64,000 nucleotides of DNA from Gemmatimonadales bacterium (GTDB lineage Bacteria > Gemmatimonadota > Gemmatimonadetes > Gemmatimonadales > GWC2-71-9). Below, one piece after another: positions 10,107 to 61,386 of the stretch. Below the pieces are notes generated by a model, which did not search any database, was not told the origin of the DNA, and saw only the letters and a program-made list of their open reading frames with translations. A program made the position numbers and the translations under genes. The stretch is taken from positions 6,266 to 70,265 of the forward strand of contig DASYRJ010000033.1 of the NCBI GenBank assembly GCA_036004525.1, in the 5' to 3' direction. Position 1 is the first letter of the stretch. Each line of letters starts with the position of its first letter.

Positions 10107-10110
10107 TCGG

Positions 10111-10140: not shown

Positions 10141-10164
10141 TGACCGGCTCCCTCGGAGACGGGC

Positions 10165-12024
<1,860 letters not shown>

Positions 12025-39120: not shown

Positions 39121-40278
39121 TCACCCACCCGTCGCGGGCGTGATCCGCACCATCACCACGCCGTGCGCGGGAACGGTCGCATTGAAGCGGCCCGTGACCG
39201 TGCCGACGTCGGTGTGCGTCCAGAGATCCCGCACCCGCGCGGGGCCGCTGATGCCGATCGCCCGCCAGGAAGCGGCGATCACCGTTTGTAGGCCCGATCG
39301 GTTGAGCAGCACGACGGCGCGCGAGCCGTCGGCCAGCGGCTTCGACCACACCTGGAGATCGATCCCGGGTTCCTGGACCAGCATCCCCTGCACGCCGAGC
39401 GAGTCCTGGTCCACCGCGATCACCTCTTTGTTAGCGAGGATCTCGCGAGTCGCGGGTGGCATCGCGCGGACGTCGTTCCCCGCCATGAGCGGCGCGGCCA
39501 TCACGGCCCAGAGACTGAAGTGGGCGCGGTACTCGTCGTCGGTCATCCCGCCGTTGCCCACCTCCAGCATGTCGGGATCGTTCCACGCGCCCGGACGGGC
39601 GGCGAGCGCATACTGGCTCGAGAGATCGAGGATGGCGATCATGCTGGCCCAGCGGTCGCCGATGTCGCCGGTAGTGCGCCACAGATTGCCGGTGCGCGGG
39701 CCCCACTCCCACGGGTGGTTCGAGCCCCATTCGCAGATGCTGAAGACGATGGGCCGGCCCGCCTTGGCGAGCGCGTCACGGAACTTGGCGTACTGCGTGG
39801 GCCCGTCGAGCCCCTCCGAGTTGCACCAGTCCTCCTTCACGTAATCGACGCCCCATTCCGCGAACGTGCGGGCGTCGATCTCCTCGGAGCCGTAGGTGCC
39901 CGGGCGGCCCTGACAGGTGCGACGCCCGGCGTCGGTGTAGATCCCGAACTTGAGTCCCTTGGCATGGACGTAATCGGCGAGCGGCTTGATGCCGCCCGGG
40001 AATCGGGCCGAGTCGGCCACGAGGCGGCCGGCGCGGTCGCGCGCCACCTGCCAGCAGTCGTCGATGACGACGTACTGGTAGCCTGCGTCGCGCATTCCGC
40101 TCGCGACCAGCGCGTCGGCGGTCTCCCTGATCAGCTGGGCGCTCACGTCGCAGTGGAAATGGTTCCAGCTGTTCCATCCCATCGGGGGCGTGCGGGCCAG
40201 GCCGTTGTCGAGTGCGGGGCGGCCCTCAAAGGAGAGGGCGAGGGCGAGGCAGAGTAGCGTCGGGAATCGCGCGGACAT
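39121..40278 (-). CDS. GH27 alpha-galactosidase (secreted)
   Basis: Signal peptide. LARTPPMGWNSWNHF, YVVIDDCW, DYVKEDWC. Confidence 0.85.
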   Translation of the reverse strand: MSARFPTLLCLALALSFEGRPALDNGLARTPPMGWNSWNHFHCDVSAQLIRETADALVASGMRDAGYQYVVIDDCWQVARDRAGRLVADSARFPGGIKPLADYVHAKGLKFGIYTDAGRRTCQGRPGTYGSEEIDARTFAEWGVDYVKEDWCNSEGLDGPTQYAKFRDALAKAGRPIVFSICEWGSNHPWEWGPRTGNLWRTTGDIGDRWASMIAILDLSSQYALAARPGAWNDPDMLEVGNGGMTDDEYRAHFSLWAVMAAPLMAGNDVRAMPPATREILANKEVIAVDQDSLGVQGMLVQEPGIDLQVWSKPLADGSRAVVLLNRSGLQTVIAASWRAIGISGPARVRDLWTHTDVGTVTGRFNATVPAHGVVMVRITPATGG

Positions 40279-40546: not shown

Positions 40547-43500
40547 ATGACACGCTCCGTCGTTCTATTCGCTTTCACTTTGGTGGCGGTCCCGATGGCT
40601 CGCGCCCAGGACGCGGGCACGATTGCCGGGACAGTCAAGGGTCGCGAGACCGGCGCTCCCTTGCCCGGCGCCAGCGTCACGGTCCTCGGGACGCGGTTCG
40701 GCACCAACACCGGGCCGGACGGCCGGTACACCATCGCCGGCGTCCCCGCCGGCAGCTACCGCGTGCGGGCCCGATTCATCGGCTACAAGACCCTGGACGA
40801 CAGCGCCGTCGTCGTGGTCGCGGGCCAGGTGACCACCGCCGACTTCCAGCTCGCCGCGCAGGCGATCGAGCTGCAAGCGGTCGTGGCCGTCGGCTACGGC
40901 ACGCAGACGAAGGCGACGTTGACGGGGGCGGTCAGCGCCGCCCCGGGCGAGGAGCTCGAGGCGGTGCCCACCGTCAACGTGGCGAACACGCTCGCCGGCA
41001 AGCTGCCGGGGGTGATCACGATCAACCAGAGCGGCGAGCCCGGGTACGACGGGGCGACGATCCGGATCCGGGGCAGTCACACCCTGAACAACAACGACGC
41101 GCTCGTCGTCATCGACGGCGTCCCCGATCGTGCCGGCGGCCTGGAGCGGCTCGACCCGCGGGAGATCGAAAGCATCAGCGTCCTGAAGGACGCCACGGCG
41201 GCCATCTACGGCTCACGCGCGGCCAACGGCGTCATCCTGATCACGACGAAGCGCGGGGAGGGCACGGCCCCGAAGGTCACGGCGAGCTTCAACCAGGGCG
41301 TGATCCACCCCACGCGGCTTCCCCAGATGGCCGACGCAGCGACGTACATGACGATGCTCAACGAGATCGACTTGTACCGGAACCGGACCCCACGCTACTC
41401 CGAGGACCTGATCCAGAAATTCCGGGAAGGCGCCGACCCCTGGCTGTACCCGAACACCGACTGGTTCGGCGAGGTCATCAAGCCCATCTCGCTGCAGAGT
41501 GTGGGACATGTGGCCCTCACCGGCGGCGCCGACCGGATCGGGTACTATCTCTCCCTGGGCGGTCTGACGGAGGACGGCTATTACCGGAACAGCGGGACCC
41601 GGTACAACCAGTACAGCTTCCGGAGCAACATCGACGGCCGGCTGAGCCAAAACGTCAGCGTGCAGTTCGACGTCTCCGGACGCCTCGAGGACCGCAACTT
41701 CCCGGCCCGAAGCGCGGGCTCGATCTTCCGGGCGCTCATACGCGGCAAGCCGAACCTCCCGGGGTATTGGCCCAACGGGCTCCCCGGACCCGACATCGAG
41801 TTCGGCGACAATCCCGTGGTGACGTCGACGCAGGCGACGGGATACGACAACGACGAGCGGTATTACCTGCAGGGCAACCTGCGCGTGGACCTGAAGGTGC
41901 CGTGGGTGAGCGGCCTGACGCTCCGCTACAATGGGGCCTACGACCTGCGCATGTTGAACCGGAAGTCGTGGCGGACCCCTTGGACGCTGTACACCTGGGA
42001 CGGGACGCGCGGCGCGGACAGCCAGCCGGTGCTGAAGCCTGCGACGCGGGGCTACAGCGCGCCCGAGCTCACCGACTATGACCAGCAGTCCACCGGTATC
42101 CTGCTGAACTTGATCGCGGAATACCGGCGGAACATCGGCGAGCACACCGTCGGCATCCTGGGCGGCATCGAACGACAGAAGGCGGACAGCGCGTATTTCA
42201 GCGCTTTCCGGAAGAACTTCATCTCGGACCAGCTCGACGAGATCTTCGCCGGCGGCGATGCTGAAAAGACCAACGACGGCCGCGCCTACGTTGGAGCGCG
42301 GCAGAACTACTTCACCCGCCTCAACTACGCCTTCCGGGACAAGTACCTGCTCCAGTTCGTCGGGCGCTCCGACGGGTCGTATATCTTCGCGAAGGATACG
42401 CGCTTCGGCTTCTTCCCGGGCGTCTCGGCGGGATGGCGTATCTCGGAAGAGCCCTTCTTCCGCGACCACGTGCCGCTCTTCAACGAGCTGAAGCTGCGGG
42501 CGTCGTGGGGCAAGACCGGCAACGACCGGATCGAAGAATGGCAGTACTTGGCCACCTATGGATTCGGCGGCGGTTATGTCTTCGGCGGCGACCGGGAAGT
42601 GAAGAGCATCTTCCCCACCCGGACCCCCAATCCCGCGGTGACCTGGGAGGTCGCGACCCAGCGCGACCTCGGTCTCGAGGGCATCCTGTTCGACAACCGG
42701 CTCTCGTTTGTATTCGACGTCTTCAAAGAGCAGCGGAACAACATTCTCCTGCGCCGGAACGCCTCGGTGCCTCGGACCACCGGGCTGAGCCTGCCGCGCG
42801 AGAACATCGGCGTGGTCTCGAGCTGGGGCTACGACGGATCGCTCACCTGGCGGCAGCGGCTGGCGAGCGGCGTGTCCTACGATGTGACGTTCACCGGCGG
42901 CTATGCCCAGAACAAGATCCTGTTCTGGGACGAGCCCCCGGGAGCGCCGCCGTGGCAGCGTTCGACGGGCCACCGGATGAACACCGGCCTGTATTACCGG
43001 GCGATCGGCGTGTTCAAGGACCAGGCCGCCGTGGACGCCTACCCCCACTGGGACGGAGCGCGCCCGGGCGACATCATCTTCGAGGACGTGAACCACGACG
43101 GCCGGATCAACGGAGACGACCGCGTCCGTAACGATAGGAACGGCGATCCCACCTTCACCGGCGGCCTCAAGCTCGGCGCGCAAGCGAGGAGTTTCGAGGT
43201 CACCGTGTTCTTCCAGGCCGCCTTCGATGCCGTGCAGTACTTCCGGACGGAATCCGGCGACATCGGCAACTTCACCCGGGAATTCGCCGAACATCGTTGG
43301 ACGCCGGAGCATCCGAGCGACAAATACCCGCGAACGTTCAACCGGCTCGACGAGTACTGGGTCGCGAACGCGAACACCTATTTCCTGCGCGATGCGAGCT
43401 ACATCCGCCTGAAGTCCGTCGAGGTCGGGTACCGGCTGCCGGATCGCCTGGCGCGCGCCATGGGTGTGGGGAACATGCGGATATACGCCAGCGGATACAA

Positions 43501-43612
43501 TCTCTTCTTGTGGGACCAGTTCAAGGTGGTGGACCCCGAGACGCGGGACTCACAGGGCCAGTACTACCCCCAGCAGCGCGTCATCAACATCGGCGCGTCT
43601 GCCGGGTTCTAA
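40547..43612 (+). CDS. SusC/RagA-type TonB-dependent outer-membrane transporter
   Basis: Signal peptide. Carboxypeptidase-regulatory-like domain (GTIAGTVKG..TGAPLPGASV). Plug region (IRIRGSHTLNNNDALVVIDG..VLKDATAAIYGSRAANGVILITTKRG). C-terminal barrel ending NIGASAGF. Confidence 0.9.
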   Translation: MTRSVVLFAFTLVAVPMARAQDAGTIAGTVKGRETGAPLPGASVTVLGTRFGTNTGPDGRYTIAGVPAGSYRVRARFIGYKTLDDSAVVVVAGQVTTADFQLAAQAIELQAVVAVGYGTQTKATLTGAVSAAPGEELEAVPTVNVANTLAGKLPGVITINQSGEPGYDGATIRIRGSHTLNNNDALVVIDGVPDRAGGLERLDPREIESISVLKDATAAIYGSRAANGVILITTKRGEGTAPKVTASFNQGVIHPTRLPQMADAATYMTMLNEIDLYRNRTPRYSEDLIQKFREGADPWLYPNTDWFGEVIKPISLQSVGHVALTGGADRIGYYLSLGGLTEDGYYRNSGTRYNQYSFRSNIDGRLSQNVSVQFDVSGRLEDRNFPARSAGSIFRALIRGKPNLPGYWPNGLPGPDIEFGDNPVVTSTQATGYDNDERYYLQGNLRVDLKVPWVSGLTLRYNGAYDLRMLNRKSWRTPWTLYTWDGTRGADSQPVLKPATRGYSAPELTDYDQQSTGILLNLIAEYRRNIGEHTVGILGGIERQKADSAYFSAFRKNFISDQLDEIFAGGDAEKTNDGRAYVGARQNYFTRLNYAFRDKYLLQFVGRSDGSYIFAKDTRFGFFPGVSAGWRISEEPFFRDHVPLFNELKLRASWGKTGNDRIEEWQYLATYGFGGGYVFGGDREVKSIFPTRTPNPAVTWEVATQRDLGLEGILFDNRLSFVFDVFKEQRNNILLRRNASVPRTTGLSLPRENIGVVSSWGYDGSLTWRQRLASGVSYDVTFTGGYAQNKILFWDEPPGAPPWQRSTGHRMNTGLYYRAIGVFKDQAAVDAYPHWDGARPGDIIFEDVNHDGRINGDDRVRNDRNGDPTFTGGLKLGAQARSFEVTVFFQAAFDAVQYFRTESGDIGNFTREFAEHRWTPEHPSDKYPRTFNRLDEYWVANANTYFLRDASYIRLKSVEVGYRLPDRLARAMGVGNMRIYASGYNLFLWDQFKVVDPETRDSQGQYYPQQRVINIGASAGF

Positions 43613-43626
43613 CGGGGACAACGACC

Positions 43627-45426
43627 ATGAGACTCCACATCCGCAGGACCTTGACGGCGGCGCTCGTTCTCCTCGGACTCACGGGCTGCAACGGGATCCT
43701 CGACCTGAGCCCGAAGGATCAGCTGTCGGACCAGGCCGTCTTTAACGACCCCAATCTGGCCGAAGCCTTCCTGAACGACATTTATCGGGGCTTGGGGCAC
43801 GGGCTCTACGAGATCATGTTGAGCTCCATCAGCGACGAGTCGCATTTCATCCACAACTACAACACCGAACCGGTCGTGCAGTCGCTCATCACCTCGAGCG
43901 ACCGGGGCGCCATCGACGACGACCGGTTCAATCACTTCGACTGGAACGATAACTACTCCCGCATCCGGCAGGCGAACATCTTCCTCAGTCACATCGACGC
44001 GACTGACTTCGACCCGGCATGGAAGCAGCGGATGAAGGGAGAAGCGTTCTTCCTGCGGGCGTACTTCTACCACAACCTGATGCGGATGTACGGCGGCGTG
44101 CCGCTGATCACGAAGGTCTACGGCCTGAACGAGGACTATCAGGTCGCGCGGAACAGCTTCAAGGAGACGGTCGACTTCGTCGTCGCCGATGCCGACTCCG
44201 CAGCCGCCCTGCTGCCGCTCGTGCACACCGCCAGCAACCTCGGCCGCGCGACCAAAGGGGCCGCACTGGCGCTCAAGGCGCGGGTGCTGCTCTACGCGGC
44301 GAGCGACCTGTACAACGTGAACCCCAGCGGCCAGCCGGAGACGGGGTATACCAGCCCGCAGGATCGTACCGCCCTCTGGAGGGCCGCGAAGAACGCCGCC
44401 AAGGCGGTGATGGACCTCGGGATCTACAGCCTGTTCCGGCCCGCCCCGGCGAGCCCGCAGGAGGCGGCCAAGAACTACGCCGACCTGTTCCTGCAGCAGA
44501 CCAGCCCGGAAGCGATCATGAGCCGCTTCTTCCTGACCAGCCGGGGCGGGGCCGACGGCTACCATCCCGGCCGGGACAACGGCCCGAACGGCTACCACAC
44601 CTGGGGCGGGAATACGCCGATCCAGAATCTGGTGGACGACTATCGCATGGCTGACGGCTCGAAGTTCGACTGGGCCAACCCCGTGGAAGCCGCGGCGCCC
44701 TACGCGAACCGGGATCCTCGGTTCTATGGATCCATCCTGTTCGATGGCGCCCAATGGCGGGAGCGTCCCACCGACGTGAAGGCGCTCGACCCGTACGGCA
44801 TCATCCAGGGGTTCCGGGAGCTCAAGGTCCCCGACTCAACGGCGGTGGGCGGCTTCCGCGTGGTGGGCGGCCTCGATACGCGCGACGGCCCGATCGAGGA
44901 CTGGAACGGCAGCTACTCCGGCTACTACATCCGGAAGTTCATCGATCCGTCCTACAACGCCCAGTTCACCAGGCAGCAGGTGCCGTGGATTTTCTTCCGG
45001 TACGCCGAGATCCTGTTCCATTACGCCGAGGCATCGATCGAGCTGGGGGAACTGGGAGACGCGCTCGGCGTCCTGAACCAGATCCGGCGCCGCGCCGGCA
45101 TGCCGGAGTTCTCGACCAGCCTCGATCAGGCGACCCTGCGGGATGAATACCGCAACGAGCGGCGTGTCGAGATGGCGTTCGAAGAGCAGCGCTTCTTCGA
45201 CGTGCGCCGCTGGATGATCGCGCCCCAGGTGCTGAGCAAGAACGCCGTCGGCATCAACATCTTCCTCGAGGGTGATAACCGGATCGACCGGTCGACCTGG
45301 CGGAACTACCGCTACGACACGCTGAAGATCCAGGACCGGGCATGGAACGACAAGATGTACTTCATGCCGATTCACCGGGACGAGTTGAACCGCAACAGCC
45401 AGCTCAGGCAGAATCCTGGATACTAG
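43627..45426 (+). CDS. SusD/RagB family lipoprotein
   Basis: Lipobox LLGLTGC. RAYFYHNLMRMYGGVPL. C-terminal NPGY. Confidence 0.85.
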   Translation: MRLHIRRTLTAALVLLGLTGCNGILDLSPKDQLSDQAVFNDPNLAEAFLNDIYRGLGHGLYEIMLSSISDESHFIHNYNTEPVVQSLITSSDRGAIDDDRFNHFDWNDNYSRIRQANIFLSHIDATDFDPAWKQRMKGEAFFLRAYFYHNLMRMYGGVPLITKVYGLNEDYQVARNSFKETVDFVVADADSAAALLPLVHTASNLGRATKGAALALKARVLLYAASDLYNVNPSGQPETGYTSPQDRTALWRAAKNAAKAVMDLGIYSLFRPAPASPQEAAKNYADLFLQQTSPEAIMSRFFLTSRGGADGYHPGRDNGPNGYHTWGGNTPIQNLVDDYRMADGSKFDWANPVEAAAPYANRDPRFYGSILFDGAQWRERPTDVKALDPYGIIQGFRELKVPDSTAVGGFRVVGGLDTRDGPIEDWNGSYSGYYIRKFIDPSYNAQFTRQQVPWIFFRYAEILFHYAEASIELGELGDALGVLNQIRRRAGMPEFSTSLDQATLRDEYRNERRVEMAFEEQRFFDVRRWMIAPQVLSKNAVGINIFLEGDNRIDRSTWRNYRYDTLKIQDRAWNDKMYFMPIHRDELNRNSQLRQNPGY

Positions 45427-45444: not shown

Positions 45445-45936
45445 ATGAGCAGCAAAGGGCTGGGGGAGATCGGGCTCGCGCTGCTGATCGGCTGCGGCGG
45501 CGGCACGGCGCGCCAGGACGCTCCGGCGCCCGACGAAGGGGCGGGGGCGGCGGGCGTCGCCGTGGGCTACGGCACCAAGGCGCCCGAAGAGGTGGCGGGG
45601 TCGGTGGCGTCCTTGTCGCCCGAGGACGCGGACGCCCGCGTGGCGCGGGTCGTGGACATGCTGGAGGGGCGCGTGGCGGGCCTCGCCGTGATCCGGCTGC
45701 CCAACGGGGAGGTCTCCCTGCGGATCCGCGGCGAGCACTCGACCAGCGGGGACAACGAGCCCCTGCTCGTGATCGACGGCGTGCCTGTGCGGGGCGCGAT
45801 CGGGGCCGCGCTCGCCGGCCTCGCCCCGCGCGACATCGCGCGGATCGACGTCTTGAAGGACGCCGGGTCCACCGCGATCTACGGCATGCAGGGCGCCAAC
45901 GGCGTGATCCTCATCACGACCCGGCGGGGCCGCTAG
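45445..45936 (+). CDS. Stand-alone TonB-dependent-receptor plug-fragment lipoprotein 1
   Basis: Lipobox LLIGC. VAVGYGT..LRIRGEHSTSGDNEPLLVIDGVP..VLKDAGSTAIYGMQGANGVILITTRRG aligns with the N-terminal plug region of the adjacent SusC. No barrel is present. Confidence 0.65.
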   Translation: MSSKGLGEIGLALLIGCGGGTARQDAPAPDEGAGAAGVAVGYGTKAPEEVAGSVASLSPEDADARVARVVDMLEGRVAGLAVIRLPNGEVSLRIRGEHSTSGDNEPLLVIDGVPVRGAIGAALAGLAPRDIARIDVLKDAGSTAIYGMQGANGVILITTRRGR

Positions 45937-45949
45937 GCTGGCGCGTGCG

Positions 45950-46393
45950 ATGAACCCGCACCATGCTTCCCGCCTGGCCGTCGCCGGCGCGCTCGCCTGC
46001 GGGGGGACGGCCGTGCCGCCGCCGGGGAGTTCCACGCCCGGGACCGCCGCCGTGACCACGATCGTCCCGAGCGAGACCGATGCGCGGGTACCGCGGGTGG
46101 AAGAGATGCTGCGCGGCGTGCCGGGTCTCGAGGTGACGCGGCTGCCGAACGGGAACTATCAGCTGCGCATCCGGGGCCCGCGCAGCATCAGAGGGAACCC
46201 GGGCGACGACAATCCGTTGCTCGTGATCGACGGGATTCCGATCCCGAACGAATCCATCGGCAGCATGCTGGCCGACCTGGCGCCGCGCGACGTCGCGCGG
46301 ATCGAGGTGCTCAAGGATGCATCGGCGACGAGTATGTACGGATCACGCGGCGCCAACGGCGTGATCGTGATTACCACCAAGCGGGCACGATAG
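45950..46393 (+). CDS. Stand-alone TonB-dependent-receptor plug-fragment lipoprotein 2 (paralog)
   Basis: Lipobox GALAC. LRIRGPRSIRGNPGDDNPLLVIDGIP..VLKDASATSMYGSRGANGVIVITTKR. Confidence 0.65.
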   Translation: MNPHHASRLAVAGALACGGTAVPPPGSSTPGTAAVTTIVPSETDARVPRVEEMLRGVPGLEVTRLPNGNYQLRIRGPRSIRGNPGDDNPLLVIDGIPIPNESIGSMLADLAPRDVARIEVLKDASATSMYGSRGANGVIVITTKRAR

Positions 46394-46404
46394 GAGGGAT
46401 CGTC

Positions 46405-47001
46405 ATGACGTCTCGCATCAGTCGGCTGGTGGCGGCCGCGGCGCTGCTCTGCGCCGCTCCCGCGGCGGCACAGGGGGCCGGCGGGGCCGGCGCCGTCGAA
46501 GTCGGCGCGTTCGCGCGCCGCACGCATTTCGACAACAGCCTGGGGATGAAGAGCACCATCGGGGTGGGTGGATGGGCATCGGTCGCCATCCGGCCCGGGC
46601 TCGCGTTCGAGCTGGACCTCTCCCACACGTCCGCCGACTACAAGAGCGGGAGCGGCTCGGCGACCTACACGCCGATGCACGCCCGGCTGGTCGGGACGTT
46701 CACGGCCGGCCCACGGGTGGAGGCCGCGTTGGGCGGGGGGTACGTGCACAACTCGTACGGGGGCTCGCTGGACGCGAGCGACGGCGGCTTGTCCGCGCTC
46801 CTGGGCCTGCGCTACCAGGCGACCAACCGGGTGTGGATGCGGCTCGGCCTCGACCTCGACGTCATGTTCCACCCGTCGAGCGACAGTCCATTCGTGTTTT
46901 ACACGGGTAACTGGGCCCTCACGCTCGGCGCCGCCGCGCGGTTGCACGGCGGCGGAGGCGGGGGCGCCGCGTCGTCACAGTCGGTAGGTCTGCTTCGCTA
47001 G
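46405..47001 (+). CDS. Small outer-membrane beta-barrel protein (OmpA-barrel/porin-like)
   Basis: Signal peptide LLCAAPAAAQG. Alternating amphipathic strands (AFELDLSHT, ALLGLRYQA, WMRLGLDLDVMF, WALTLGAAARL). The 3' end overlaps convergent uxaC by 27 nt. Confidence 0.55.
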   Translation: MTSRISRLVAAAALLCAAPAAAQGAGGAGAVEVGAFARRTHFDNSLGMKSTIGVGGWASVAIRPGLAFELDLSHTSADYKSGSGSATYTPMHARLVGTFTAGPRVEAALGGGYVHNSYGGSLDASDGGLSALLGLRYQATNRVWMRLGLDLDVMFHPSSDSPFVFYTGNWALTLGAAARLHGGGGGGAASSQSVGLLR

Positions 47002-48432
47002 ATCGTACGCGAGCGCGCGCGCCATCGGGCGCGCGTCGCTCTCGTCGATCACGTGGCGCGCCACCAGCCCCGCCAGATAGTTGGCATCCATGCGCCGCGC
47101 CAGGTCGTGCCGCGCCGGGATCGAGCAAAACGCCCGCGTGTCGTCGTTGAACCCCGCCGTCTTGTAGATCCCCGCCGTCTCCGTCGTCCGCTCGCGGAAC
47201 CGCCGCATTCCTTCCATCGAATCGAAGAACCACCACGGCGGCCCGAGCCGGACCGCCGGATAATGCCCCGCGAGCGGCGCCAGCTCCCGGCTGTAGGTGG
47301 ACTCATCGAGGGTGAAGAGCACCAGGGAGAGCCGCGCGTCGTTGCCGTAGGCGTTCAGCAGCGGGCGCAGGTTGCGCGTGAATTCGGTGGCGACGGGCAT
47401 GTCGCCGCCCCGGTCGGGACCGAACCGCTCGAACACCAGGCGGTTGTGGTCGCGCAGCGCGCCGGCATGGATCTGCATCACCAACCCGTCCTCCAGCGAC
47501 AGCCGGGCCATCTCCATGAGGAGATGCGCCGTGAAGCGGCGCTCGTCGGCGGGCGTGACTTCGCCCTGGCACGCCAGGTGAAACAGGCGCTCCGCCTCCT
47601 CGCCCCCCCCCTCGAGGGCCCCGGTAAACGGCTCGAGCACGGCGTGGTCGGTCGCCGTGGCGCCCAGGCTCTTGAAATAGGCCCGGCGATCGGCCAGCGC
47701 CCGCACGAACCCGACGTAGTCGCGCACCGGCTCACCGTCGGCACGCCCCAGGGCGTCCAGCGCTTTGGACCAGCCGCGCGCCGCGATCCGAAACAGGGCG
47801 TCCGGCCGGAAGGTCGGGACCACGCGCCCCTTCCATCCCGATTCGCGGATCGCCCGGTGGTGGTCGAGCATGTCGCTCGCCGCATCGGTCGTGGCCAACA
47901 CCTCGATGTTGAAGCGCTCGAACAGGGCCCGCGGGCGGAACTCGGGCGAGCGGAGCTTCTCCCGGATTTCGTCGTAGATGCGCGGCGCCGTTTCGCCCGA
48001 CAACCGGGTGCCGATGCCGAAGACCTCGTGCAGCTCGTAATCGAGCCAGGCGCCGGTCGGCGTGCCGTGAAACAGGTGGTAATGGTCCGCGAAGCGCTGC
48101 CACACCTTGCAGGGATCGGCCTCCACCGGGGCGCCGTCGCGGCGCGGGACGCCCAGCGCCTCGAGCGGGACGCCGTGCGCGTACAACAGTCTCAGGATGT
48201 AGTGGTCGGGCTGAACGATGAGCGCCGCCGGCTCGGGGAAGGGTGTGTCCTCCGCCAGGATGCGGGGATCGACGTGGCCGTGCGGGGAGATGATAGGCAG
48301 GCCGCGCGTCTCCTCGTACAGCGCGCGCGCGACCCGACGAACCGAAGGGTCGGGATCGAAGCAGCGATCCTCGGAGAGGACGCCGGCGTCTAGACGGCCG
48401 GCGTCCAGCCCGGAGCGTACTCGCGTTGCCAC
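46975..48432 (-). CDS. uxaC: Uronate (glucuronate) isomerase
   Basis: RRVARALYEETRGLPIISPHGHVDP.., IVQPDHYILRLL, and family-typical length. The start is uncertain: GTG 48432 or CTG 48408, with no ATG near the conserved N-terminus. Confidence 0.8.
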   Translation of the reverse strand: MATRVRSGLDAGRLDAGVLSEDRCFDPDPSVRRVARALYEETRGLPIISPHGHVDPRILAEDTPFPEPAALIVQPDHYILRLLYAHGVPLEALGVPRRDGAPVEADPCKVWQRFADHYHLFHGTPTGAWLDYELHEVFGIGTRLSGETAPRIYDEIREKLRSPEFRPRALFERFNIEVLATTDAASDMLDHHRAIRESGWKGRVVPTFRPDALFRIAARGWSKALDALGRADGEPVRDYVGFVRALADRRAYFKSLGATATDHAVLEPFTGALEGGGEEAERLFHLACQGEVTPADERRFTAHLLMEMARLSLEDGLVMQIHAGALRDHNRLVFERFGPDRGGDMPVATEFTRNLRPLLNAYGNDARLSLVLFTLDESTYSRELAPLAGHYPAVRLGPPWWFFDSMEGMRRFRERTTETAGIYKTAGFNDDTRAFCSIPARHDLARRMDANYLAGLVARHVIDESDARPMARALAYDLAKQTYRL

Positions 48433-49709
48433 AAGGCCATGGCCTGTTCGTCGCCCTGAATGTGCCCGGACTGGGGGTCGGTGCGGAGCGCCCGGCCGGT
48501 CCACTGCGCGATATTGCCGAGGTGACACAGCAGCACGCTCTTCGCCCCCTCCGCGATCGGCTGGGTCACCGGCGCGCCCGTGCGGATCGCCTCGACAAAA
48601 TTCGCGATGTGGAGCGTGGTGAGCAGGTCGTCCCCGCTCGGCGCCAGGGGATCGGCGACCGCGGGCGCGATCGATTCCTTCACGACCTTGCGGTCCAGAT
48701 CGTACACCGTGTAGCCGTCCTGGTCCATCACGACCGTCCCGGTCGTCCCGTGCACGATGGTGCCGCGGCCGCGATTCTCCGTGGGGAACGGATTGCAGCT
48801 CAAGCCCTGCCACACGATCGCACGCTGACCCTCGAACTCGAAGCCGGCTTCCTGGGTATCGGTGAACTCCCAATCGTCTTCGAAATGATACCGACCGCCC
48901 ACCGACGTCACGCGCACGGGGTAGTCGACACCCAGGGCCCAGCGGGCGACGTCGATCTCGTGGGTCCCGTTGTTGCAGATCTCGCCGGTGCCCCAGCGCC
49001 GGAACCAATGCCAGTTGTAGTGGATGACGTTGTCCCGGTACGGCGTGCGGGGCGCCGGTCCCTGCCACAGCTCGTAGTCTAGGCCCGACGGGACGGGCAC
49101 GGCCTTGCCGCGGCCGATCGAGCGGCGCCGGTTCGCGTACCAGGCACGGGCCAGATAGGGACGTCCGATCGCCCCTTCCCGGACAGCCTGGACCGCCTCC
49201 TGGGCGCGGGGGGAAGACCGGCGCTGCGTGCCCATCTGGACCACGCGCTTGGCCTTGCGCTGCGCCTCCACCAGCAGCTCGCCTTCGCGCGGATTGTGGC
49301 CGCAGGGCTTCTCGACGTACACGTGTTTGCCCGCCGAGAGCGCCAGGATCGCCGCGGGCGCGTGCCAATGGTCGGGGGCGGCGATCACCAGCGCGTCGAT
49401 CGTCTTGTCCTCGAGGGCGCGGCGGAAGTCGACCAGCCCCTTGGGGGGGGCGCCTTTCGCCTGGGCTGTGCCGACGGCCGCCACGCCCTTGGCGAGCACC
49501 TGCGCATCCACGTCGCACACACAGGCGACTTCGGTGTTGGGCGTCTTGGCGAACACGCGGGCGAGGACGGTGCCGCGGCCGTTCAGGCCCATGACCGCGA
49601 CGACCACCTTCTCGGCCGGCGAGCCGCGGAGCGCGAGCAAGGGTGCGCGGGCGGCCGCGAGCCCGAGGCCCGTCGCCGAGACGGTCTTCACGAAGTGGCG
49701 GCGCTTCAC
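48390..49709 (-). CDS. Gfo/Idh/MocA oxidoreductase with Tat signal (periplasmic)
   Basis: VKRRHFVKTVSATGLGLAAA twin-arginine leader. VAVMGLNGRG Rossmann motif. YVEKPCGH. Confidence 0.85.
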   Translation of the reverse strand: MKRRHFVKTVSATGLGLAAARAPLLALRGSPAEKVVVAVMGLNGRGTVLARVFAKTPNTEVACVCDVDAQVLAKGVAAVGTAQAKGAPPKGLVDFRRALEDKTIDALVIAAPDHWHAPAAILALSAGKHVYVEKPCGHNPREGELLVEAQRKAKRVVQMGTQRRSSPRAQEAVQAVREGAIGRPYLARAWYANRRRSIGRGKAVPVPSGLDYELWQGPAPRTPYRDNVIHYNWHWFRRWGTGEICNNGTHEIDVARWALGVDYPVRVTSVGGRYHFEDDWEFTDTQEAGFEFEGQRAIVWQGLSCNPFPTENRGRGTIVHGTTGTVVMDQDGYTVYDLDRKVVKESIAPAVADPLAPSGDDLLTTLHIANFVEAIRTGAPVTQPIAEGAKSVLLCHLGNIAQWTGRALRTDPQSGHIQGDEQAMALWQREYAPGWTPAV

Positions 49710-50476
49710 AGCGGTCTCACTTTGATGTTGCGGAAATAGACCTCATCGCCGTGATCCTGCAAGACGATGTGTCCCCGGCGGCGGTCGGCAAAGCCGGGGA
49801 TCGAGCGGTACTTGCTCTTCGCGAGGAGGGAGTCCATGCGCGCGGTGCCCAAATCGAACTCGACGATCTTCCGGCCGTTGAGCCAGTGCTCCCCGTGGTT
49901 GCCGCGGAAGATGACGGCGGCCCGGTTCCATTCGCCCACGGGACGCAGCTGCTTCGCGTCGCTCGGCGCGATCAGGTCGTACAACGCGCCGGAGCGGTGG
50001 GTGGGCAGCTTCCCGTCCTCGTGCCGATCGTCGTCGATCATCTGGTACTCGAACCCCAGGGCCGAGTGGTTCGGAGCGATGGCGCCGCGGGCGACGGCCG
50101 TGGGGGTCATCGCGCCGTTCTGGGCGATCGACATTTCCTCGGAGACGTTGTACTTGACGCCGCTGTTCGCCCCCGGCGTAACCTTCCACTCCCAGGTCAG
50201 CTCGAGGTCTCCGAACGTCTCCACGGTCATCAGGTCGCCGCCGTTGAGGGGTCGCCCGTCTGCGACCCGGGGGATGTCGCCGCTCGCGATCTTCTTGATG
50301 GCGCCGTCCACCACGACCCAGTGCCCGGTCGGCACGGTGTCGTAGCCCAGCCCGCGCCAGCCGGCCAGCGTGCGTCCATCGAACAACAGCTGCCAGCCGG
50401 CGGCACGTTCGGGGGCGGTCAGTTCATTGGGCCCGCTCGTTTGGAAAGCGAGGACGAGGATGAGTGGCGTGATCAT
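49706..50476 (-). CDS. DUF1080 / 3-keto-disaccharide hydrolase-like protein (secreted)
   Basis: ATGA overlap with the MFS stop. GWQLLFDGRTLAGWRG, FGDLELTWEWKV, ANSGVKY, HIVLQDHGDEVYFRNIKV. Confidence 0.8.
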   Translation of the reverse strand: MITPLILVLAFQTSGPNELTAPERAAGWQLLFDGRTLAGWRGLGYDTVPTGHWVVVDGAIKKIASGDIPRVADGRPLNGGDLMTVETFGDLELTWEWKVTPGANSGVKYNVSEEMSIAQNGAMTPTAVARGAIAPNHSALGFEYQMIDDDRHEDGKLPTHRSGALYDLIAPSDAKQLRPVGEWNRAAVIFRGNHGEHWLNGRKIVEFDLGTARMDSLLAKSKYRSIPGFADRRRGHIVLQDHGDEVYFRNIKVRPL

Positions 50477-51768
50477 GGCGTCTCCTTCAGCCGGGCGGGC
50501 TCGAGCCTCGGGGCGAGAATGTGGATGATCGTCCAGGCGGTCACGTAGGCGAGCCCGCAGACAATGAAGATGGGTGTGTAGTCGTTCCCGTTGGCGTCGA
50601 GGATGCGGCCGGTGACGCGCTGGAACGCCCAGCCGCCGATGCCGCCGGCGAACGCCCCGATACCGACCACCGAGCCCACCGCCGCGCGCGGGAACATGTC
50701 GCTGGCCAGCGTATAGACGTTGGCGGACCACGCCTGGTGCGCCGCGGCGGCGACGCTGACGATCAGGACGGCGGTCCACATGCTCCCCGCCAGGGGCGCC
50801 AGGACCGTGGGCAATATCAGGAGCGCCATGGCGAGCATGGCAGTTTTGCGCGCCCGGTTGACCGTCCAGCCCCGCTTGATCAGCGCGCTCGAGAGCCACC
50901 CACCGCCCACCGAGCCTACGTCCGCGATCACATACACGACGATGAGCGGCAGCGCGACCTGCGCCAACTTGATGCCGTACTTGGCGTCCAGAAACTTCGG
51001 CAGCCAGTACAGATAGAACCACCACACCGGATCGGCCAGCAGCTTCCCGACGGCGAACGCCCAGGTCTGGCGATGGGTCAGGAGGTGGGCCCAGGGCACG
51101 CCGGCCACCGGCGCGTCCGGCGGATCGCTCAGGATGTGCGCGCGCTCGGCCTCCGACACGCGCGGATGCTGCTCGGGGTTCCGGTACACGGCCAGCCAGA
51201 AGACCAGCCACAGGAAGCCGAGTGAGCCCGTCGCGATGAAGGCCCACTGCCAGCCCCAGGTCAGCGCGATCCAGGGGACGATGAGCGGCGTGAGGATCGC
51301 GCCCGTGTTCGTGCCGGCGTTGAAGATGCCGGTCGCGAGCGCCCGTTCGCGCTTCGGGAACCACTCGGCGACGGTCTTGATCGCGCCGGGAAAATTGGCC
51401 GACTCGGCGACGCCCAGGAACGCCCGCGCGGCGGAGAACGCGGCGGTGGTGCGGGCAAAGGCGTGCGCCATGGCCGCCAGGCTCCACGCGACGACCGCCG
51501 CCGCGAACCCGCGCCGCACGCCGATCCGGTCGAACAGCCGCCCGGCCGCGAGGAAGGCGAACGCGTAGGGCAGGCTGAACCACGACACGACGTCGCCGTA
51601 CGCGGCCTCGGACCACCCGAGTTCGCGTTGCAGCGTCGGCGCCAGAATACCGAGCACCTGCCGGTCCACGTAATTGATCGTGGTGACGACGAACAGCAGG
51701 GCGCAGATCGTCCAGCGGTACCCGAAGAGGCGGGTACGGACCGGCGCCGGAGCGGCGGTCCACGTCAC
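50473..51768 (-). CDS. MFS transporter, hexuronate transporter (ExuT)-like
   Basis: 12 predicted TM segments. INYVDRQVLG. GRLFDRIGVRRG loop motif. Confidence 0.8.
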   Translation of the reverse strand: MTWTAAPAPVRTRLFGYRWTICALLFVVTTINYVDRQVLGILAPTLQRELGWSEAAYGDVVSWFSLPYAFAFLAAGRLFDRIGVRRGFAAAVVAWSLAAMAHAFARTTAAFSAARAFLGVAESANFPGAIKTVAEWFPKRERALATGIFNAGTNTGAILTPLIVPWIALTWGWQWAFIATGSLGFLWLVFWLAVYRNPEQHPRVSEAERAHILSDPPDAPVAGVPWAHLLTHRQTWAFAVGKLLADPVWWFYLYWLPKFLDAKYGIKLAQVALPLIVVYVIADVGSVGGGWLSSALIKRGWTVNRARKTAMLAMALLILPTVLAPLAGSMWTAVLIVSVAAAAHQAWSANVYTLASDMFPRAAVGSVVGIGAFAGGIGGWAFQRVTGRILDANGNDYTPIFIVCGLAYVTAWTIIHILAPRLEPARLKETP

Positions 51769-53327
51769 AACGTCACGCCTTCCTTCCAGATGGCGATCTC
51801 GCGATAGCCGTGCTTCTCGTTGTTGGCCAGCTCCCGTCCCGAGGCCACGTCGAGGATCAATGCGAACAGGTCATCGGCGAGCCGGTCCATGGTGGCCGAG
51901 CCGTCGAGCAGCGCCCCGGCGTTGAGATCGATCCAGTGCGGTTTCTTCTCGGCGATCGCGGTGTTGGACGAGATCTTGAGCGTCGGCACCGGAAAGCCGA
52001 GCGGGGTGCCACGGCCCGTCGTGAAGAGGAGCAGCGTCGCGCCGCTCGCGACCAGCGCCGTCGACGACACGCCGTCGTTGCCCGGCGACTCGAGCAGCGC
52101 CAACCCTCCCGCCCGCATCACCGCCGGCTCGCCGTAGCGCAGTACGTGAGTCACCGGCGCCCGGCCGCCCTTCTGGATCGCGCCCAGCGATTTCTCCTCG
52201 AGCGTGGTCAGGCCCCCTGCGACGTTGCCCGGCGACGGGTTCTCGTAGATCGGCTGCCCGTGGCGCAGGAAGTATCCCTTGAAATCGTTGACCAGCGCGA
52301 CGATGCCCTCGAACACGCGCTCATCGGCCGCCCGGTTCATCAGCACCCGTTCGGCGCCGAACATCTCCGGGACCTCGGTGAGGATCACGCCGCCGCCCAG
52401 CGCCGTCAGCCGGTCGGCGATGCGCCCGACGAGGGGATTGGCCGTGATGCCGCTCAACCCGTCCGACCCGCCGCACTTGTGGCCGAGGATCAGATCGGCG
52501 GCGGAACACTCCTCGCGCCGGTCGCGCTCCATCACGGCGACGAGCTGCCCCAGGGCCTCGAGCCCCGCCTCGACTTCGTCCGTGACGTCCTGCGAGTTGA
52601 AGAACCGGAGCCGCTCGCGCTCGACGTTCCCCGCGAGGTGGACCAGCTCGTCCATCTGATTGTTCTCGCAGCCGAGGCCGAGTACCAGGACCGCGCCGGC
52701 GTTCGGGTGGCGCATCAGGCCGGCCAGGGCGCGCTGCGTGTTGCGGAGATCGTCGCCGAGCTGGCCGCAGCCGTAGGGGTGCGAGAAGCTGTACACCCCG
52801 TCGATCCGGCTGCCGAACAGCGCCGCGCCCTCGCGGGCGATCCGCTCCGCCGCATGGTTCACGCAGCCGACGGTGTTGAGGATCCACACCTCGTTGCGCG
52901 TGCCCACGCGGCCGTTGGCGCGGCGGTACCCCATGAACGTCGCCCTCACCCCCTGGCCCCCGCTCCCCTTCGCTGCGCTCAGGGCAGGCTCTTCGGGAGA
53001 GGGGGAACGTGGGGGTGAGGACGGCTCGTATGTGTACTCCAGCACCCCTTCCAGGCACGTCTTGAGATTGTGCGAATGGACCCAGGCGCCGGGGGCGATC
53101 GCGGCGGTGGCGGCCCCGATCGGGAAGCCGTACTTGACGACCACTTCGCCCCGCGCGAGCGCGCGCAGCGCGACCTTATGGCCGGCGGGGACGTCCTCCA
53201 GGAGGGGTAACGCGCGCGTTGCCCCTGCCCCCTCGACCACGACCTCGCTCCCCGCGGTGAGCGCCCGAATCGCCACCGCGACGTCGTCCGCCGGGTGGAT
53301 TTTGAGCGCCTGTGCGGCCACGCTCAC
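51765..53327 (-). CDS. uxaA: Altronate/galactarate dehydratase family (UxaA-like) with an extra repeat-derived linker segment
   Basis: SAF N-domain (IHPADDVAVAI, AGHKVAL). TFMGYRRANGRVGTRNEVWI, GCVN, HPYGCGQ, LGCE. Insert SSPPRSPSPEEPALSAAKGSGGQGVRA. Confidence 0.85.
   Translation of the reverse strand: MSVAAQALKIHPADDVAVAIRALTAGSEVVVEGAGATRALPLLEDVPAGHKVALRALARGEVVVKYGFPIGAATAAIAPGAWVHSHNLKTCLEGVLEYTYEPSSPPRSPSPEEPALSAAKGSGGQGVRATFMGYRRANGRVGTRNEVWILNTVGCVNHAAERIAREGAALFGSRIDGVYSFSHPYGCGQLGDDLRNTQRALAGLMRHPNAGAVLVLGLGCENNQMDELVHLAGNVERERLRFFNSQDVTDEVEAGLEALGQLVAVMERDRREECSAADLILGHKCGGSDGLSGITANPLVGRIADRLTALGGGVILTEVPEMFGAERVLMNRAADERVFEGIVALVNDFKGYFLRHGQPIYENPSPGNVAGGLTTLEEKSLGAIQKGGRAPVTHVLRYGEPAVMRAGGLALLESPGNDGVSSTALVASGATLLLFTTGRGTPLGFPVPTLKISSNTAIAEKKPHWIDLNAGALLDGSATMDRLADDLFALILDVASGRELANNEKHGYREIAIWKEGVTL
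52944..53020. repeat. GC-rich nested palindromic repeat, copy 1 (inside uxaA)
   Basis: CCTCACCCCC-TGG-CCCCCGCTCCC-[27 nt]-GGGAGAGGGGG-AACGT-GGGGGTGAGG. Confidence 0.8.
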
Positions 53328-54379
53328 CGGGTGAAGTCCCGGTAGTACGTCTCGATCTGGTCCGGTGTGGCGGTGCGGGAAAGGATCAGCACACGATAGC
53401 GGAACGTGGTGGACTGTCCCCGCGCGAGCCGGAAGTTCAGCTCCTCCTTCCCGTTCGTGAACACCTTGCGGCCGAGCGGGTTGGCGGCGAACAGACCGTA
53501 GCCGCGCGCGTGCCAGTACGTCGGGAACCCGACATTCTGCGGGTGGTCCAGGATGGCGAGGGTCACGGGCTCACCCTCCACGGTGCCGGTGAGCATCGTC
53601 CAGCGACCGCGCGTGCCCCACACGGAGTCGCCCTCGAGGCCTTCGGAGCTGCGATAGCGGCCGGTGACGCCGTCGTTGTTGAGCATCGGCACCGTCGTGG
53701 CGTGGCCGGCGGCGTCGGTAAACACCTCGGGCGTATTGGACGGCTGCTCGAGCGCCCGCGCCACGCGCATGCCGATCAGCCCTTCCTTGTTGTCGGTGAA
53801 GGTCACGGGACCTCCGACGGCCGTGAGCGTCGTGATGCGGTCGACCTCGCGCAGGCCTTCGGCCGCACGGAAGATGAAGCGCGTGTCCTCGCGCAGCAGC
53901 GCCTTGCCCTGGGAGTCGACCCACTCCGCCGTCACGTCGAGCGTGCCTTCTCCCTCACCGCTGTGGACGCGGCGCACCGAGCGCTGGACGATGGTCCCCA
54001 TCTTGTCCGCGCGCGCCGGGGGGATGGCGTCGGAGTTGTTCCAGAAATCGAGCCCGCCGACGTCCCCGTGGTTGAACCACAGACCGACTTGATGCGGGTG
54101 ATCCACGCGCTCGCCGGGCCTGGGCTCGAGGGGCCAGCCGCGCGTGACCACCACCCCAGACGCCGCCCGCAGCGGGTAGAGCGTGGGCTTCTTGAGCGTC
54201 GTCGGCCAGATGTACGACGTAAAGGGTTTGCCGTCGACCGTGACGTCGACGCGGCGGTCGGCCTCGCGTGCCACGACGTCTACGCGAGGCTGCCTCACCC
54301 CCTGACCCCCTCTCGACTCCGTGGAGAGGGGGAACAAGGGGACGAGAGTCACGCACAGCAGCAACCAAGCCTTGCGCAT
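53324..54379 (-). CDS. PmoA-family / DUF6807-like secreted protein
   Basis: Signal peptide. DHPHQVGLWFNHGDVGGLDFWN motif. It neighbours Gfo/Idh/MocA genes, as I recall is typical of this family. Confidence 0.6.
   Translation of the reverse strand: MRKAWLLLCVTLVPLFPLSTESRGGQGVRQPRVDVVAREADRRVDVTVDGKPFTSYIWPTTLKKPTLYPLRAASGVVVTRGWPLEPRPGERVDHPHQVGLWFNHGDVGGLDFWNNSDAIPPARADKMGTIVQRSVRRVHSGEGEGTLDVTAEWVDSQGKALLREDTRFIFRAAEGLREVDRITTLTAVGGPVTFTDNKEGLIGMRVARALEQPSNTPEVFTDAAGHATTVPMLNNDGVTGRYRSSEGLEGDSVWGTRGRWTMLTGTVEGEPVTLAILDHPQNVGFPTYWHARGYGLFAANPLGRKVFTNGKEELNFRLARGQSTTFRYRVLILSRTATPDQIETYYRDFTR
54293..54348. repeat. GC-rich nested palindromic repeat, copy 2 (inside the PmoA-like gene, signal-peptide region)
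   Basis: CCTCACCCCC-TGA-CCCCCTCTC-[9 nt]-GAGAGGGGG-AACAA-GGGGACGAGAG. Confidence 0.75.
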
Positions 54380-54386
54380 GTGTGCC

Positions 54387-55727: not shown

Positions 55728-55764
55728 CTCCCCTCCTCTATGAGTAGTGGACGCTGCATGTCGG

Positions 55765-56643: not shown

Positions 56644-56645
56644 GC

Positions 56646-61300: not shown

Positions 61301-61386
61301 GCGGTCTGGATTGGTACCAGAGCGAGCAGCGGTAAGAGAAGCGAGAGACGGAACGGAGCGACTGGGGACGACGTGGAGGCGGACAT
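58309..61386 (-). CDS. SusC/RagA-type TonB-dependent outer-membrane transporter
   Basis: Start at MSASTSS... Signal peptide ..IQTALAQD. GTITGMVQDQATGTPLQGAQV. VRLRGTRSLNASNDPLYVLDGIP..VLKDASATAIYGSRGANGVVLITSRQG. C-terminus MMGVTLGI. Confidence 0.9.
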   Translation of the reverse strand: MSASTSSPVAPFRLSLLLPLLALVPIQTALAQDTTGARGTITGMVQDQATGTPLQGAQVAVVGTKLGAEAGPDGRYTIRGVPSGTYRVQAQLIGYGLWQVPNVVVTAGQTVTADFRLQQLAVALQEVVVIGYGTQVRRDITGSVASVGGNDVHEVPKVNAIEAIKGRVPGVDIVTTGNKPGDGVRVRLRGTRSLNASNDPLYVLDGIPMSGGIGDLNPRDIESIEVLKDASATAIYGSRGANGVVLITSRQGRAGTTNITYDTYAGYQEPVRRVRMMNGPEFAEHKREANRTTGNYKCPSTVAVCDSGDAKLFWPQELAAMRAGLSTDWQSLVLREGMQVSNEVGVTGGDERTRFALTLGQLQQDGIITAQDFRRRSMRLNFDHELNPRLRVGSSTSLIRTDQNLGRGDGVYSEALGNNPLGVPYDSTGKILFKPTPDGQRVNPLSDIRNWMDERQRTRVFGTLFADYDLAPALNWRLNFGPDLTFYRRGVFRGAETQAMQGSGADAGLWQSRTFAYTLDNILTFHGRLGNDHRLTTTLLYSIQQQRTEDDTVHVTGVANEHQLFYDIGSATNVDPPYSSLEEWSLLSVMARVNYTLKDRYLFTVTTRRDGSSRLAPGRKYGLFPSVAVAWRLSEEDLVRRTRIFSDLKLRASYGVTGNTSISPYQTEGSLTRTIYSFAGQAAVGYRPGRLPNPNLKWERTGQMDVGLEFTALNNRLSGSVDYYRADTRDLIMERQLPPTTGYSSILENVGATRNTGIEVAFSTLLVQDWHGLRWNVDVNGASNRNRIVRLSSGLQRDIGNGWFVGQPIDVYYDYQFAGIWQHQDSLTALGYAQKPGQIRVVDQPTVYDSVTGQWRGDGKIDGADRVILGTPFPRWTGSLTSRLDWKGIDLSVMAVARLDFMVHDEFRTGQNQLFGRYNNILTDYWTPTNPSNTDPRPNADQEFPLYGDARGYEEGSFVRVRNITVGYTVPDGRAGLFRARSLRIYATALDPFLFTKFKGLDPESRTNPGVPSYRTVMMGVTLGI

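Follow-up and report, generated by a model that had tools for sequence, protein, structure and literature searches.

Barrel-less SusC-type plug lipoproteins and a small outer-membrane barrel beside a SusC/SusD pair in a Gemmatimonadales bacterium

The plug of a TonB-dependent transporter (TBDT) is, in the textbook account, a part of that transporter seated inside its barrel, and TonB boxes belong to transporters and a few parasitic toxins. What, then, could plugs without a barrel be doing as separate lipoproteins directly downstream of a SusC/SusD pair? The question is raised by a 64,000-nucleotide stretch of DNA from a Gemmatimonadales bacterium (contig DASYRJ010000033.1, positions 6,266 to 70,265; hereafter the window, G+C ~68%), in which two consecutive open reading frames (ORFs), ORF1 and ORF2, encode plug-only proteins and a third, ORF3, encodes a small beta-barrel. 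Our analysis indicates that ORF1 and ORF2 are very probably functional and belong to a large family of SusC-type plugs without a barrel, and that ORF3 is an 8-stranded OmpA-like barrel. The features concerned are as follows.

45445..45936, + strand: ORF1, a TonB-box-bearing, barrel-less SusC-type plug lipoprotein of 163 aa (Plug and TIGR04057 matches)
45445..45495, + strand: predicted lipoprotein signal peptide of ORF1, lipobox LLIG-C with Cys17 (Cys conservation in homologues)
45553..45579, + strand: TonB-box region of ORF1, G-V-A-V-G-Y-G-T-K (family column identities; alignment to Bt1763)
45586..45906, + strand: plug domain of ORF1, Pfam residues 48-154 (Pfam match)
45950..46393, + strand: ORF2, a TonB-box-less, barrel-less plug lipoprotein of 147 aa, lipobox GALA-C (Cys17), plug residues 33-138
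46405..47001, + strand: ORF3, an 8-stranded OmpA/OmpW-like outer-membrane barrel of 198 aa (PF13505, AlphaFold2 (AF2) model, Foldseek)

Plug domains, export signals and selection

An earlier note, made from the letters alone, had described ORF1 and ORF2 as stand-alone SusC-type plug lipoproteins lacking a barrel and had suggested a search with the Plug hidden Markov model; profile searches bore the description out. Pfam Plug (PF07715) matched over nearly its whole length in both proteins, with profile positions 3-107 of 107 at ORF1 residues 48-154 (E 1.5e-13, 51.6 bits) and positions 7-107 at ORF2 residues 33-138 (E 6.7e-16, 59.2 bits; cut-off 23.9). The SusC/RagA signature TIGR04057 was likewise passed (59.9 bits for ORF1 and 64.0 for ORF2; cut-off 46.2), whereas both proteins stay below the cut-off of the full-length SusC model TIGR04056 (131 and 110 bits; cut-off 368) and span only positions ~82-207 of its 981. 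Both proteins stop 2-9 residues past the ITT(R/K)R motif without a 22-strand barrel, and the C-terminus of ORF1 lies 9 residues past its plug, at the SusC plug/barrel junction. The two are 58% identical to each other, and ORF1 and ORF2 are 45% and 50% identical, respectively, to the plug of the neighbouring SusC. They share the fold and the motifs IRIRG, PLxVIDG, VLKDA and YGxRGANGVIxITTK with SusC/RagA-type plugs (Bt1763, SusC, RagA, ButC); unlike SusC/RagA transporters, they have neither the 22-strand barrel nor the NTE (CarboxypepD_reg) domain, carry a lipoprotein signal peptide of their own, and fall far under the TIGR04056 cut-off. In the AF2 model of ORF1, a plug core with a predicted local distance difference test score (pLDDT) of 70-92 follows a disordered tether (residues 16-44), and the best structural matches in the PDB were the plugs of SusC, ButC and RagA (8aa4_A, 8ypu_C, 6sml_B), in agreement with a profile search of PDB sequences.

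The lipoboxes LLIGC in ORF1 and GALAC in ORF2, which had already been noticed by eye, are present, with Cys17 as the lipid cysteine in each; the signal peptide of ORF2 has a short h-region and an Arg at -9. This cysteine was invariant in a family alignment of 73 sequences and 100% conserved in 114 ORF1-type sequences, and a lipobox-like motif was found in 113/120 top ORF1 matches and 107/120 top ORF2 matches. With a signal peptide ending in a lipobox with an invariant cysteine, both proteins are predicted lipoproteins.

To gauge the extent of the family, a profile built from the 73 members was searched against 1.84 billion cluster representatives, which returned 1,342 representatives (clusters at 50% identity) at E<=1e-30. 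Among the best 150 of these 1,342, 126 were <=210 aa long; a lipobox was present in 117 of those, and 73 of those carried a TonB-box-like xVxVGYGT at a median of 17 residues past the cysteine. Most of the best 150 end 1-5 residues past the ITTKR motif. The family build is a lipid cysteine, a Pro-rich tether of 15-25 residues and one whole plug, and its C-terminal end is exactly the SusC transition from plug to first barrel strand, so that each member corresponds to a precise whole-domain excision. The earlier view that plugs normally occur only inside 22-strand barrels therefore needs qualifying, as barrel-less plug modules are very numerous in databases.

Genes that encode a single TBDT domain can be debris. 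The single-domain TBDR genes of Xanthomonas, termed 'Ps-TBDR', are frameshifted pseudogenes (PMC1790865); they likewise carry one of the two TBDT domains, but they are frameshifted halves of genes intact in sister strains, whereas the free-plug family has an export signal, constant length and purifying selection. The G+C content at third codon positions was of coding type in all three ORFs (0.97 in ORF1, 0.86 in ORF2 and 0.90 in ORF3), and pairwise ratios of nonsynonymous to synonymous substitution rates (dN/dS) against orthologues were 0.28-0.37 for ORF1, 0.18-0.31 for ORF2 and 0.22-0.55 for ORF3, well under 1. Database homologues at E<=1e-5 numbered 1,844 for ORF1 and 982 for ORF2; the best 120 of each were almost all 140-175 aa long with Plug only (~160 aa for the ORF1-type and ~145 aa for the ORF2-type). 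In a scan of one genome per species, every Gemmatimonadales/Gemmatimonadaceae match ended 0-7 residues past the ITTKR strand, Bacteroidota matches ran on for 660-870 residues as normal SusC, apart from a few cut by a contig end or lying in an apparently interrupted gene, and one Planctomycetota match lay on a truncated contig. A tblastn search with SusC barrels matched only the two intact SusC genes of the window and found no SusC-barrel remnants near ORF1 or ORF2. Together with the uniform truncation points and dN/dS <0.4, this ruled out a degraded-SusC origin. ORF1 and ORF2 each also have their own signal peptide and invariant lipobox cysteine, length is constant over hundreds of homologues and across more than 1,000 clusters (1,342 in the profile search), and synteny is conserved. 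The suspicion raised at the outset, that the ORFs might be remnants of a degraded SusC or have only pseudogenes as homologues, is thus refuted; ORF1 and ORF2 are selected stand-alone genes, and we regard non-functional debris as scarcely credible.

Two subtypes, the TonB box and the small-barrel partner

ORF1-type proteins carry the segment (D/E)-E-V-S-V-G-Y-G-T-Q after their variable Pro-rich tether, ~17 residues past the lipid cysteine, with column identities (n=114) of V86 S90 V86 G98 Y99 G94 T95 %. Over the same sequences, mean column identity was 85% in this segment, 76% in the plug core and 38% in the tether. ORF2-type proteins begin directly at the first plug strand without the motif, and xVxVGYGT was present in 109/120 ORF1-type versus 0/120 ORF2-type sequences. 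In the profile search of PDB sequences, the ORF1-type consensus aligned with VDEVVV-TGY of Bt1763. Deletion or alanine substitution of VDEVVV in Bt1763 abolishes levan uptake (PMC7782687), and DEVVV of SusC and DAVVV of ButC are functional TonB boxes (ButC/SusC literature including bioRxiv 10.64898/2026.09.16.752182). The ORF1-type thus keeps the DEVxV-GYGT box of SusC/RagA-type plugs as a present and highly conserved motif that may bind TonB, and the ORF2-type has lost it. The earlier note had read VGYGT in both proteins and had seen in both a potential TonB-box protein or competitor for TonB. For ORF1-type proteins this reading gains real support; ORF2-type proteins, with the box in 0/120, cannot be TonB-box decoys, and as they are conserved without it, the plug core must have a function independent of the TonB box.

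The small beta-barrel suspected at 46405-47001 was confirmed: ORF3 passes PF13505 OMP_b-brl (46.3 bits; cut-off 28.7), its AF2 model has 8 strands (pLDDT 77), and the top Foldseek matches were the OmpA transmembrane domain (1bxw), OmpW, OprG and NspA. A Sec signal peptide (residues 1-22, AAPAAA/Q) precedes strands at residues 31-181. In the NCBI database, a protein listed under a Gemmatimonadales metagenome-assembled genome is 100% identical to ORF3. A C-terminal aromatic beta-signal is absent from ORF3: its last residues form a disordered, Gly-rich tail (...RLHGGGGGGAASSQSVGLLR) that does not finish in Phe, Tyr or Trp, and its homologues end ...RLNGGG. As a housing for a plug, ORF3 was rejected on the AF2 and Foldseek results, 8 strands being too small. 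The two longest predicted extracellular loops, L1 and L4 (residues 42-46 and 154-170; FDNSLG and MFHPSS.SPF.FY.GNW), show the highest conservation in the whole protein, which is unusual for loops of outer-membrane proteins.

Two fusion orthologues, 83% identical (P0297 at L074:5230-6162, and L111:6404-7348), join an 8-strand OMP_b-brl barrel through a linker of ~20 residues to an ORF2-type plug from which signal peptide and lipobox have been removed; both genes lie directly after SusC-SusD. In even-stranded outer-membrane barrels, the C-terminus is periplasmic, and a plug fused to it would therefore be periplasmic as well. As a Rosetta-stone fusion, this arrangement argues that barrel and plug work together. 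At two loci (L097, L112), the barrel gene precedes a separate plug gene; a 137-aa ORF between two plug genes in L071 was rejected as a small barrel, having no similarity to the ORF3 family.

Gene linkage was counted over 51 non-redundant plug-only genes/loci. Plug genes with a TonB box had SusD immediately upstream in 18/24 loci and a small barrel adjacent in 9/23. Plug genes without the box had a small barrel adjacent in 11/17 loci and SusD immediately upstream in 2/17. ORF1-type genes directly follow SusD, and in many cases a small barrel then follows (L076-L087). In the window, the five + strand genes SusC, SusD, ORF1, ORF2 and ORF3 are separated by gaps of 11-18 nt, and the unit is bounded as follows.

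39121..40278, - strand: alpha-galactosidase (melibiase), divergent, bounds the unit upstream (directly beside the plug and barrel pair in most relatives)
40547..43612, + strand: SusC-type TonB-dependent transporter (TIGR04056 835 bits, full length)
43624..45426, + strand: SusD-family lipoprotein, lid of SusC (PF07980 E 5e-60; PF14322 E 4e-30)
46975..48393, - strand: uronate isomerase (UxaC), convergent, bounds the unit downstream (27-nt overlap between its 3' end and that of ORF3)

In relatives, orthologues of ORF2 (83% identity) and ORF3 are flanked by the same two genes, melibiase and uxaC, with neither SusC/SusD nor a second plug; in most relatives, the plug and barrel pair occupies the same chromosomal site without any SusC/SusD, and the pair recurs in a different sugar-acid neighbourhood. 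It is thus the small barrel, and not SusCD, that is conserved as the partner of ORF2. A SusC-SusD-plug-barrel order with a single plug was found in two genomes (L014, L015), and the same five-gene layout as in the window in two independent metagenome contigs (L073, L104). From gene order, the window looks like a SusC-SusD-ORF1 cassette placed before a resident ORF2-ORF3 pair, two recurrent modules being combined.

The neighbouring SusC is complete: beside an NTE domain and a 22-strand barrel, it has a TonB-box region (AVVAVGYGTQ) and a plug (residues 122-229; Pfam Plug, E 6.9e-20) of its own. The N-terminus of SusD reads LLGLTGC. Every adjacent SusC examined in other loci has its own plug and TonB box as well. 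Comparison of the SusC genes upstream of plug-only genes in L069, L070, L091, L102, L105, L109 and L111 revealed a systematic difference between the SusC TonB-box region, ELNPVVA(V/I)GYA, and the DEVSVGYGT of the plug-only lipoprotein beside it. At L069 and L070, loci for which upstream sequence was examined, the ORF1-type SusC-SusD-plug operons begin with genes for an extracytoplasmic function (ECF) sigma factor and FecR. Some SusCs beside ORF1-type genes carry an STN domain; by eye, an N-terminal STN-like segment was seen in the SusCs of L078, L091, L102, L105, L109 and L111.

Wider relatives and competing explanations

Among the further matches of the profile search were proteins in which 3-6 tandem copies of the C-terminal plug half are fused to M56/BlaR1 membrane and/or TonB_C domains. 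The repeat unit comprises the C-terminal ~65 plug residues (PLYVVDG...VLKD.SATALYG.RG.NGVI.ITTK), and the proteins (P0280, P0343, P0361, P0282, P0290, P0283, P0300, P0310 and P0287) are low-G+C and Bacteroidota-like; P0287, from another phylum, combines plug repeats with a Por_Secre_tail of the type IX secretion system (T9SS). This half of the plug appears to form a repeat module that is autonomous and associated with TonB-like proteins, and its fusions to M56/BlaR1 and TonB_C point to the periplasm and the Ton system. M56-type TonB homologues are known in B. thetaiotaomicron (TonB1/TonB10) but uncharacterised, and the report on them makes no mention of plug repeats (PMC10350073). The relatives found here represent another barrel-less use of the plug tied to the Ton system, but they are inner-membrane multi-domain proteins with half-plug repeats, whereas ORF1 and ORF2 each consist of one entire plug with a lipid anchor.

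Two further groups also lack a barrel. Lipobox proteins of ~250 aa (P0359, P0383) combine CarboxypepD_reg (NTE), TonB box and plug, the whole N-terminal part of SusC, and the same ~250-aa build with a Sec signal lies upstream of a complete SusC/SusD pair at L117:6632-7390 (41% G+C). More distant plug-only lipoproteins, 35-40% identical to ORF1 and with a TonB-box-like V(E/N)(V/I)GYGT motif, occur singly or as tandem pairs on metagenome contigs of ~60% G+C (L119, L126, L131, L133, L142; for example L133:4832-5272 and L126:2810-3668). In the five loci examined (L119, L126, L132, L133, L142), these plugs lie directly after a conserved gene for a BatD/TPR/SH3 protein of ~874 aa, and in L133, the sole locus scanned further upstream, the BatD-family gene is preceded by two further kinds of Bat-type operon gene, BatA-type VWA and TPR, a context unrelated to SusCD. 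Plug repeats, NTE-plug lipoproteins and Bat-linked plugs show that barrel-less plugs are a general, unrecognised use of the plug domain.

For the window, the explanation we favour, tentatively and with somewhat less than even confidence, is that both plugs are periplasmic domains tethered to the outer membrane, with ORF1 a TonB-engaging accessory or decoy of SusCD and ORF2 plus ORF3 a two-part OmpA-like protein. Anchored in the inner leaflet of the outer membrane, the plugs would project into the periplasm. ORF1 would offer its SusC-type TonB box near the membrane, where the C-terminal domain of TonB could bind it by beta-strand pairing, as it does with a transporter, and ORF1 might then, as an accessory dock, decoy or recruiter for TonB, tune the energisation (or signalling) of the co-encoded SusCD. 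ORF2, unable to bind TonB in that way, would form a complex with ORF3, the two-gene equivalent of an OmpA-type protein with a membrane barrel and a periplasmic globular domain. Free plugs share with OmpA/Pal architecture three formats, namely lipoprotein, C-terminal fusion to an 8-strand barrel and inner-membrane fusion, and ORF3 resembles the OmpA transmembrane domain; the periplasmic domain, however, is a TBDT plug and not the peptidoglycan-binding OmpA_C, so the likeness is one of design and not of homology. Pairing of an outer-membrane lipoprotein with a beta-barrel, genetically or physically and with a disordered tether past the lipid cysteine, has precedents in LptE-LptD and in RcsF-OmpA/OmpC. 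LptE, however, plugs a 26-strand barrel and ORF3 has 8 strands; the ORF2-ORF3 complex is suggested by gene adjacency and the two fusions.

Several observations weigh against this explanation. ORF1 itself reads AAGVAV where the family consensus is DDEVSV, and thus lacks the acidic residues; the TonB boxes of plug-only proteins, D(E)VSVGYGT, show no co-variation with those of the adjacent SusCs, (N/Q)(P/A)VVA(V/I)GY; and the ORF2-type is equally conserved without any box. The AF2 model of ORF1 reached only moderate overall confidence (pLDDT 72.5). The Arg of IRIRG and the Lys of VLKDA are invariant in the 73-sequence alignment; we take them to be the counterparts of FepA R75/R126, the 'lock' residues that pair with barrel glutamates, and their invariance could mean that a barrel partner still exists. 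According to the summary in PMC11658791, the isolated FepA plug was unfolded in vitro (Usher 2001). Finally, the T9SS sorting domain on P0287 suggests that some free plugs may be located at the surface.

The conservation of the ORF2-type without a TonB box, with purifying selection and constant length, is what would be expected if the free plug were a binding or scaffold module anchored to the outer membrane in the periplasm, to which TonB is irrelevant and whose partner might be, for example, an imported oligosaccharide, peptidoglycan or another envelope protein. Such a module would share the three formats of OmpA_C, that is, lipoprotein (Pal), barrel fusion (OmpA) and inner-membrane fusion (MotB), and the plug module does occur as a lipoprotein, as an 8-strand-barrel fusion and as an M56-sensor fusion; the distant lipoproteins after Bat operons are unrelated to SusCD, and the plug and barrel pair stands without adjacent SusCD in many genomes. 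We nevertheless consider this explanation unlikely, since it accounts neither for the TonB-box segment being conserved better than anything else outside the core of the ORF1-type nor for plug repeats occurring together with TonB_C domains, and the sequence suggests no ligand. A further possibility gives the TonB box a mechanical use: TonB-box free-plug lipoproteins would be new, non-transporter clients of the Ton system, with TonB, driven by the proton motive force, pulling the anchored plug, alone or on the 8-strand barrel, as a Tol-Pal-like envelope tether or mechanosensor or as an in-trans stopper or regulator of SusC barrels that have lost their own plug by ejection. We judge this distinctly unlikely.

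Action in trans within a 22-strand barrel may also be envisaged more broadly, with the free plug as a spare or regulatory stopper after ejection of the SusC plug, or as the missing half of a plug-less barrel encoded elsewhere. The separately expressed cork and barrel of FhuA are said, in work by Braun and colleagues from 2003, to reassemble in vivo; the boundaries of the family enclose the whole plug, its barrel-contacting 'lock' residues are invariant, and SusC-type states without plug density in cryo-EM support complete plug ejection (bioRxiv 10.64898/2026.09.16.752182; PMC7782687). Against this, each neighbouring SusC that was examined brings a plug and a TonB box of its own, a trans plug would lose out to one held covalently in cis, the sole barrel encoded alongside has 8 strands, and about 150 loci yielded no SusC barrel without a plug. 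The split transporter proposed in the earlier note does not survive these observations at the adjacent genes, and action in trans is, overall, improbable. Even more doubtful, in our view, is that the plug lipoproteins are surface-exposed accessory subunits of SusCD, in the gene position of the surface glycan-binding lipoproteins of Bacteroidota polysaccharide utilisation loci (PULs), with ORF3 as an additional outer-membrane subunit. Their position directly 3' of SusD in an apparent operon, the export of lipoproteins to the surface that SusD shows for these bacteria, the T9SS sorting domain on a multi-plug protein elsewhere and the high conservation of the predicted extracellular loops L1 and L4 of ORF3 would suit such a role. 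A plug at the C-terminus of an 8-strand barrel is periplasmic, however, as are the TonB_C and M56 fusions, and a conserved TonB box would be meaningless on the cell surface.

Full-text literature searches for stand-alone, plug-only or plug-domain lipoproteins found no description, and databases name the family generically 'TonB-dependent receptor plug domain-containing protein' or, wrongly, SusC. What appears to be new, as judged from sequence, is the use of a known plug domain as a conserved stand-alone lipoprotein that has kept a TonB box and has a small barrel as its dedicated partner. The family contradicts both textbook ideas: in more than 1,000 clusters, the plug is off the barrel, lipid-anchored and under selection, and one branch has a TonB box better conserved than that of the neighbouring SusC. 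The family is a fixed part of SusCD operons in a soil phylum. If TonB does engage the box, the clients of the Ton system at the outer membrane would include proteins that are not transporters, and the system would reach past 22-strand transporters both in Gemmatimonadota and, by way of the plug-repeat/TonB_C proteins, in Bacteroidota. This would bear on how limiting TonB is shared among many transporters, on the regulation of SusCD transport and signalling, and on whether SusC plugs are autonomous folding units able to leave the barrel, as debated from cryo-EM 'no-plug' states. The small size of free plugs would also make them handy tools for studying TonB-plug mechanics without a membrane barrel.

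Surroundings of the unit in the window

An RBS-like (ribosome-binding-site-like) AGGAGG lies 7-8 nt 5' of ORF1. A promoter and terminator scan of 40.0-47.4 kb was uninformative, except that it detected no terminator inside the stretch from SusD to ORF3, a result that fits a single operon, if weakly. No TonB/ExbBD genes were found among the window genes scanned. SusCD tandems are known in Gemmatimonadetes (PULDB, PMC5753385), and the window holds a second SusC (58309-61428, - strand) and SusD (56646-58292, - strand) pair, divergent from an alginate-lyase gene (61577-62884, + strand). No plug-only gene or small barrel follows this second SusD; the accessory genes are thus not attached to every SusCD of this genome.

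On the - strand at 46975-56814 lies a hexuronate/sugar-acid catabolism cluster, syntenic with relatives, that contains UxaC, GFO_IDH_MocA oxidoreductases, a 3-keto-disaccharide-hydrolase-like protein, an MFS transporter, an altronate-dehydratase-like GD_AH protein, DUF6807 and a xylose-isomerase-like TIM barrel. This cluster and the melibiase (39121-40278) hint at the substrate class of the PUL, the setting being suggestive of glycans that contain galactosides or uronates. Farther away, at 2597-12024, is a cluster of signalling genes that includes, beside two ORFs without Pfam matches (7690-9009 and 9036-10106), an FHA-trypsin-like protease, a PP2C phosphatase, an FHA/double-zinc-ribbon protein and two Ser/Thr kinases, one of them with a PEGA domain.

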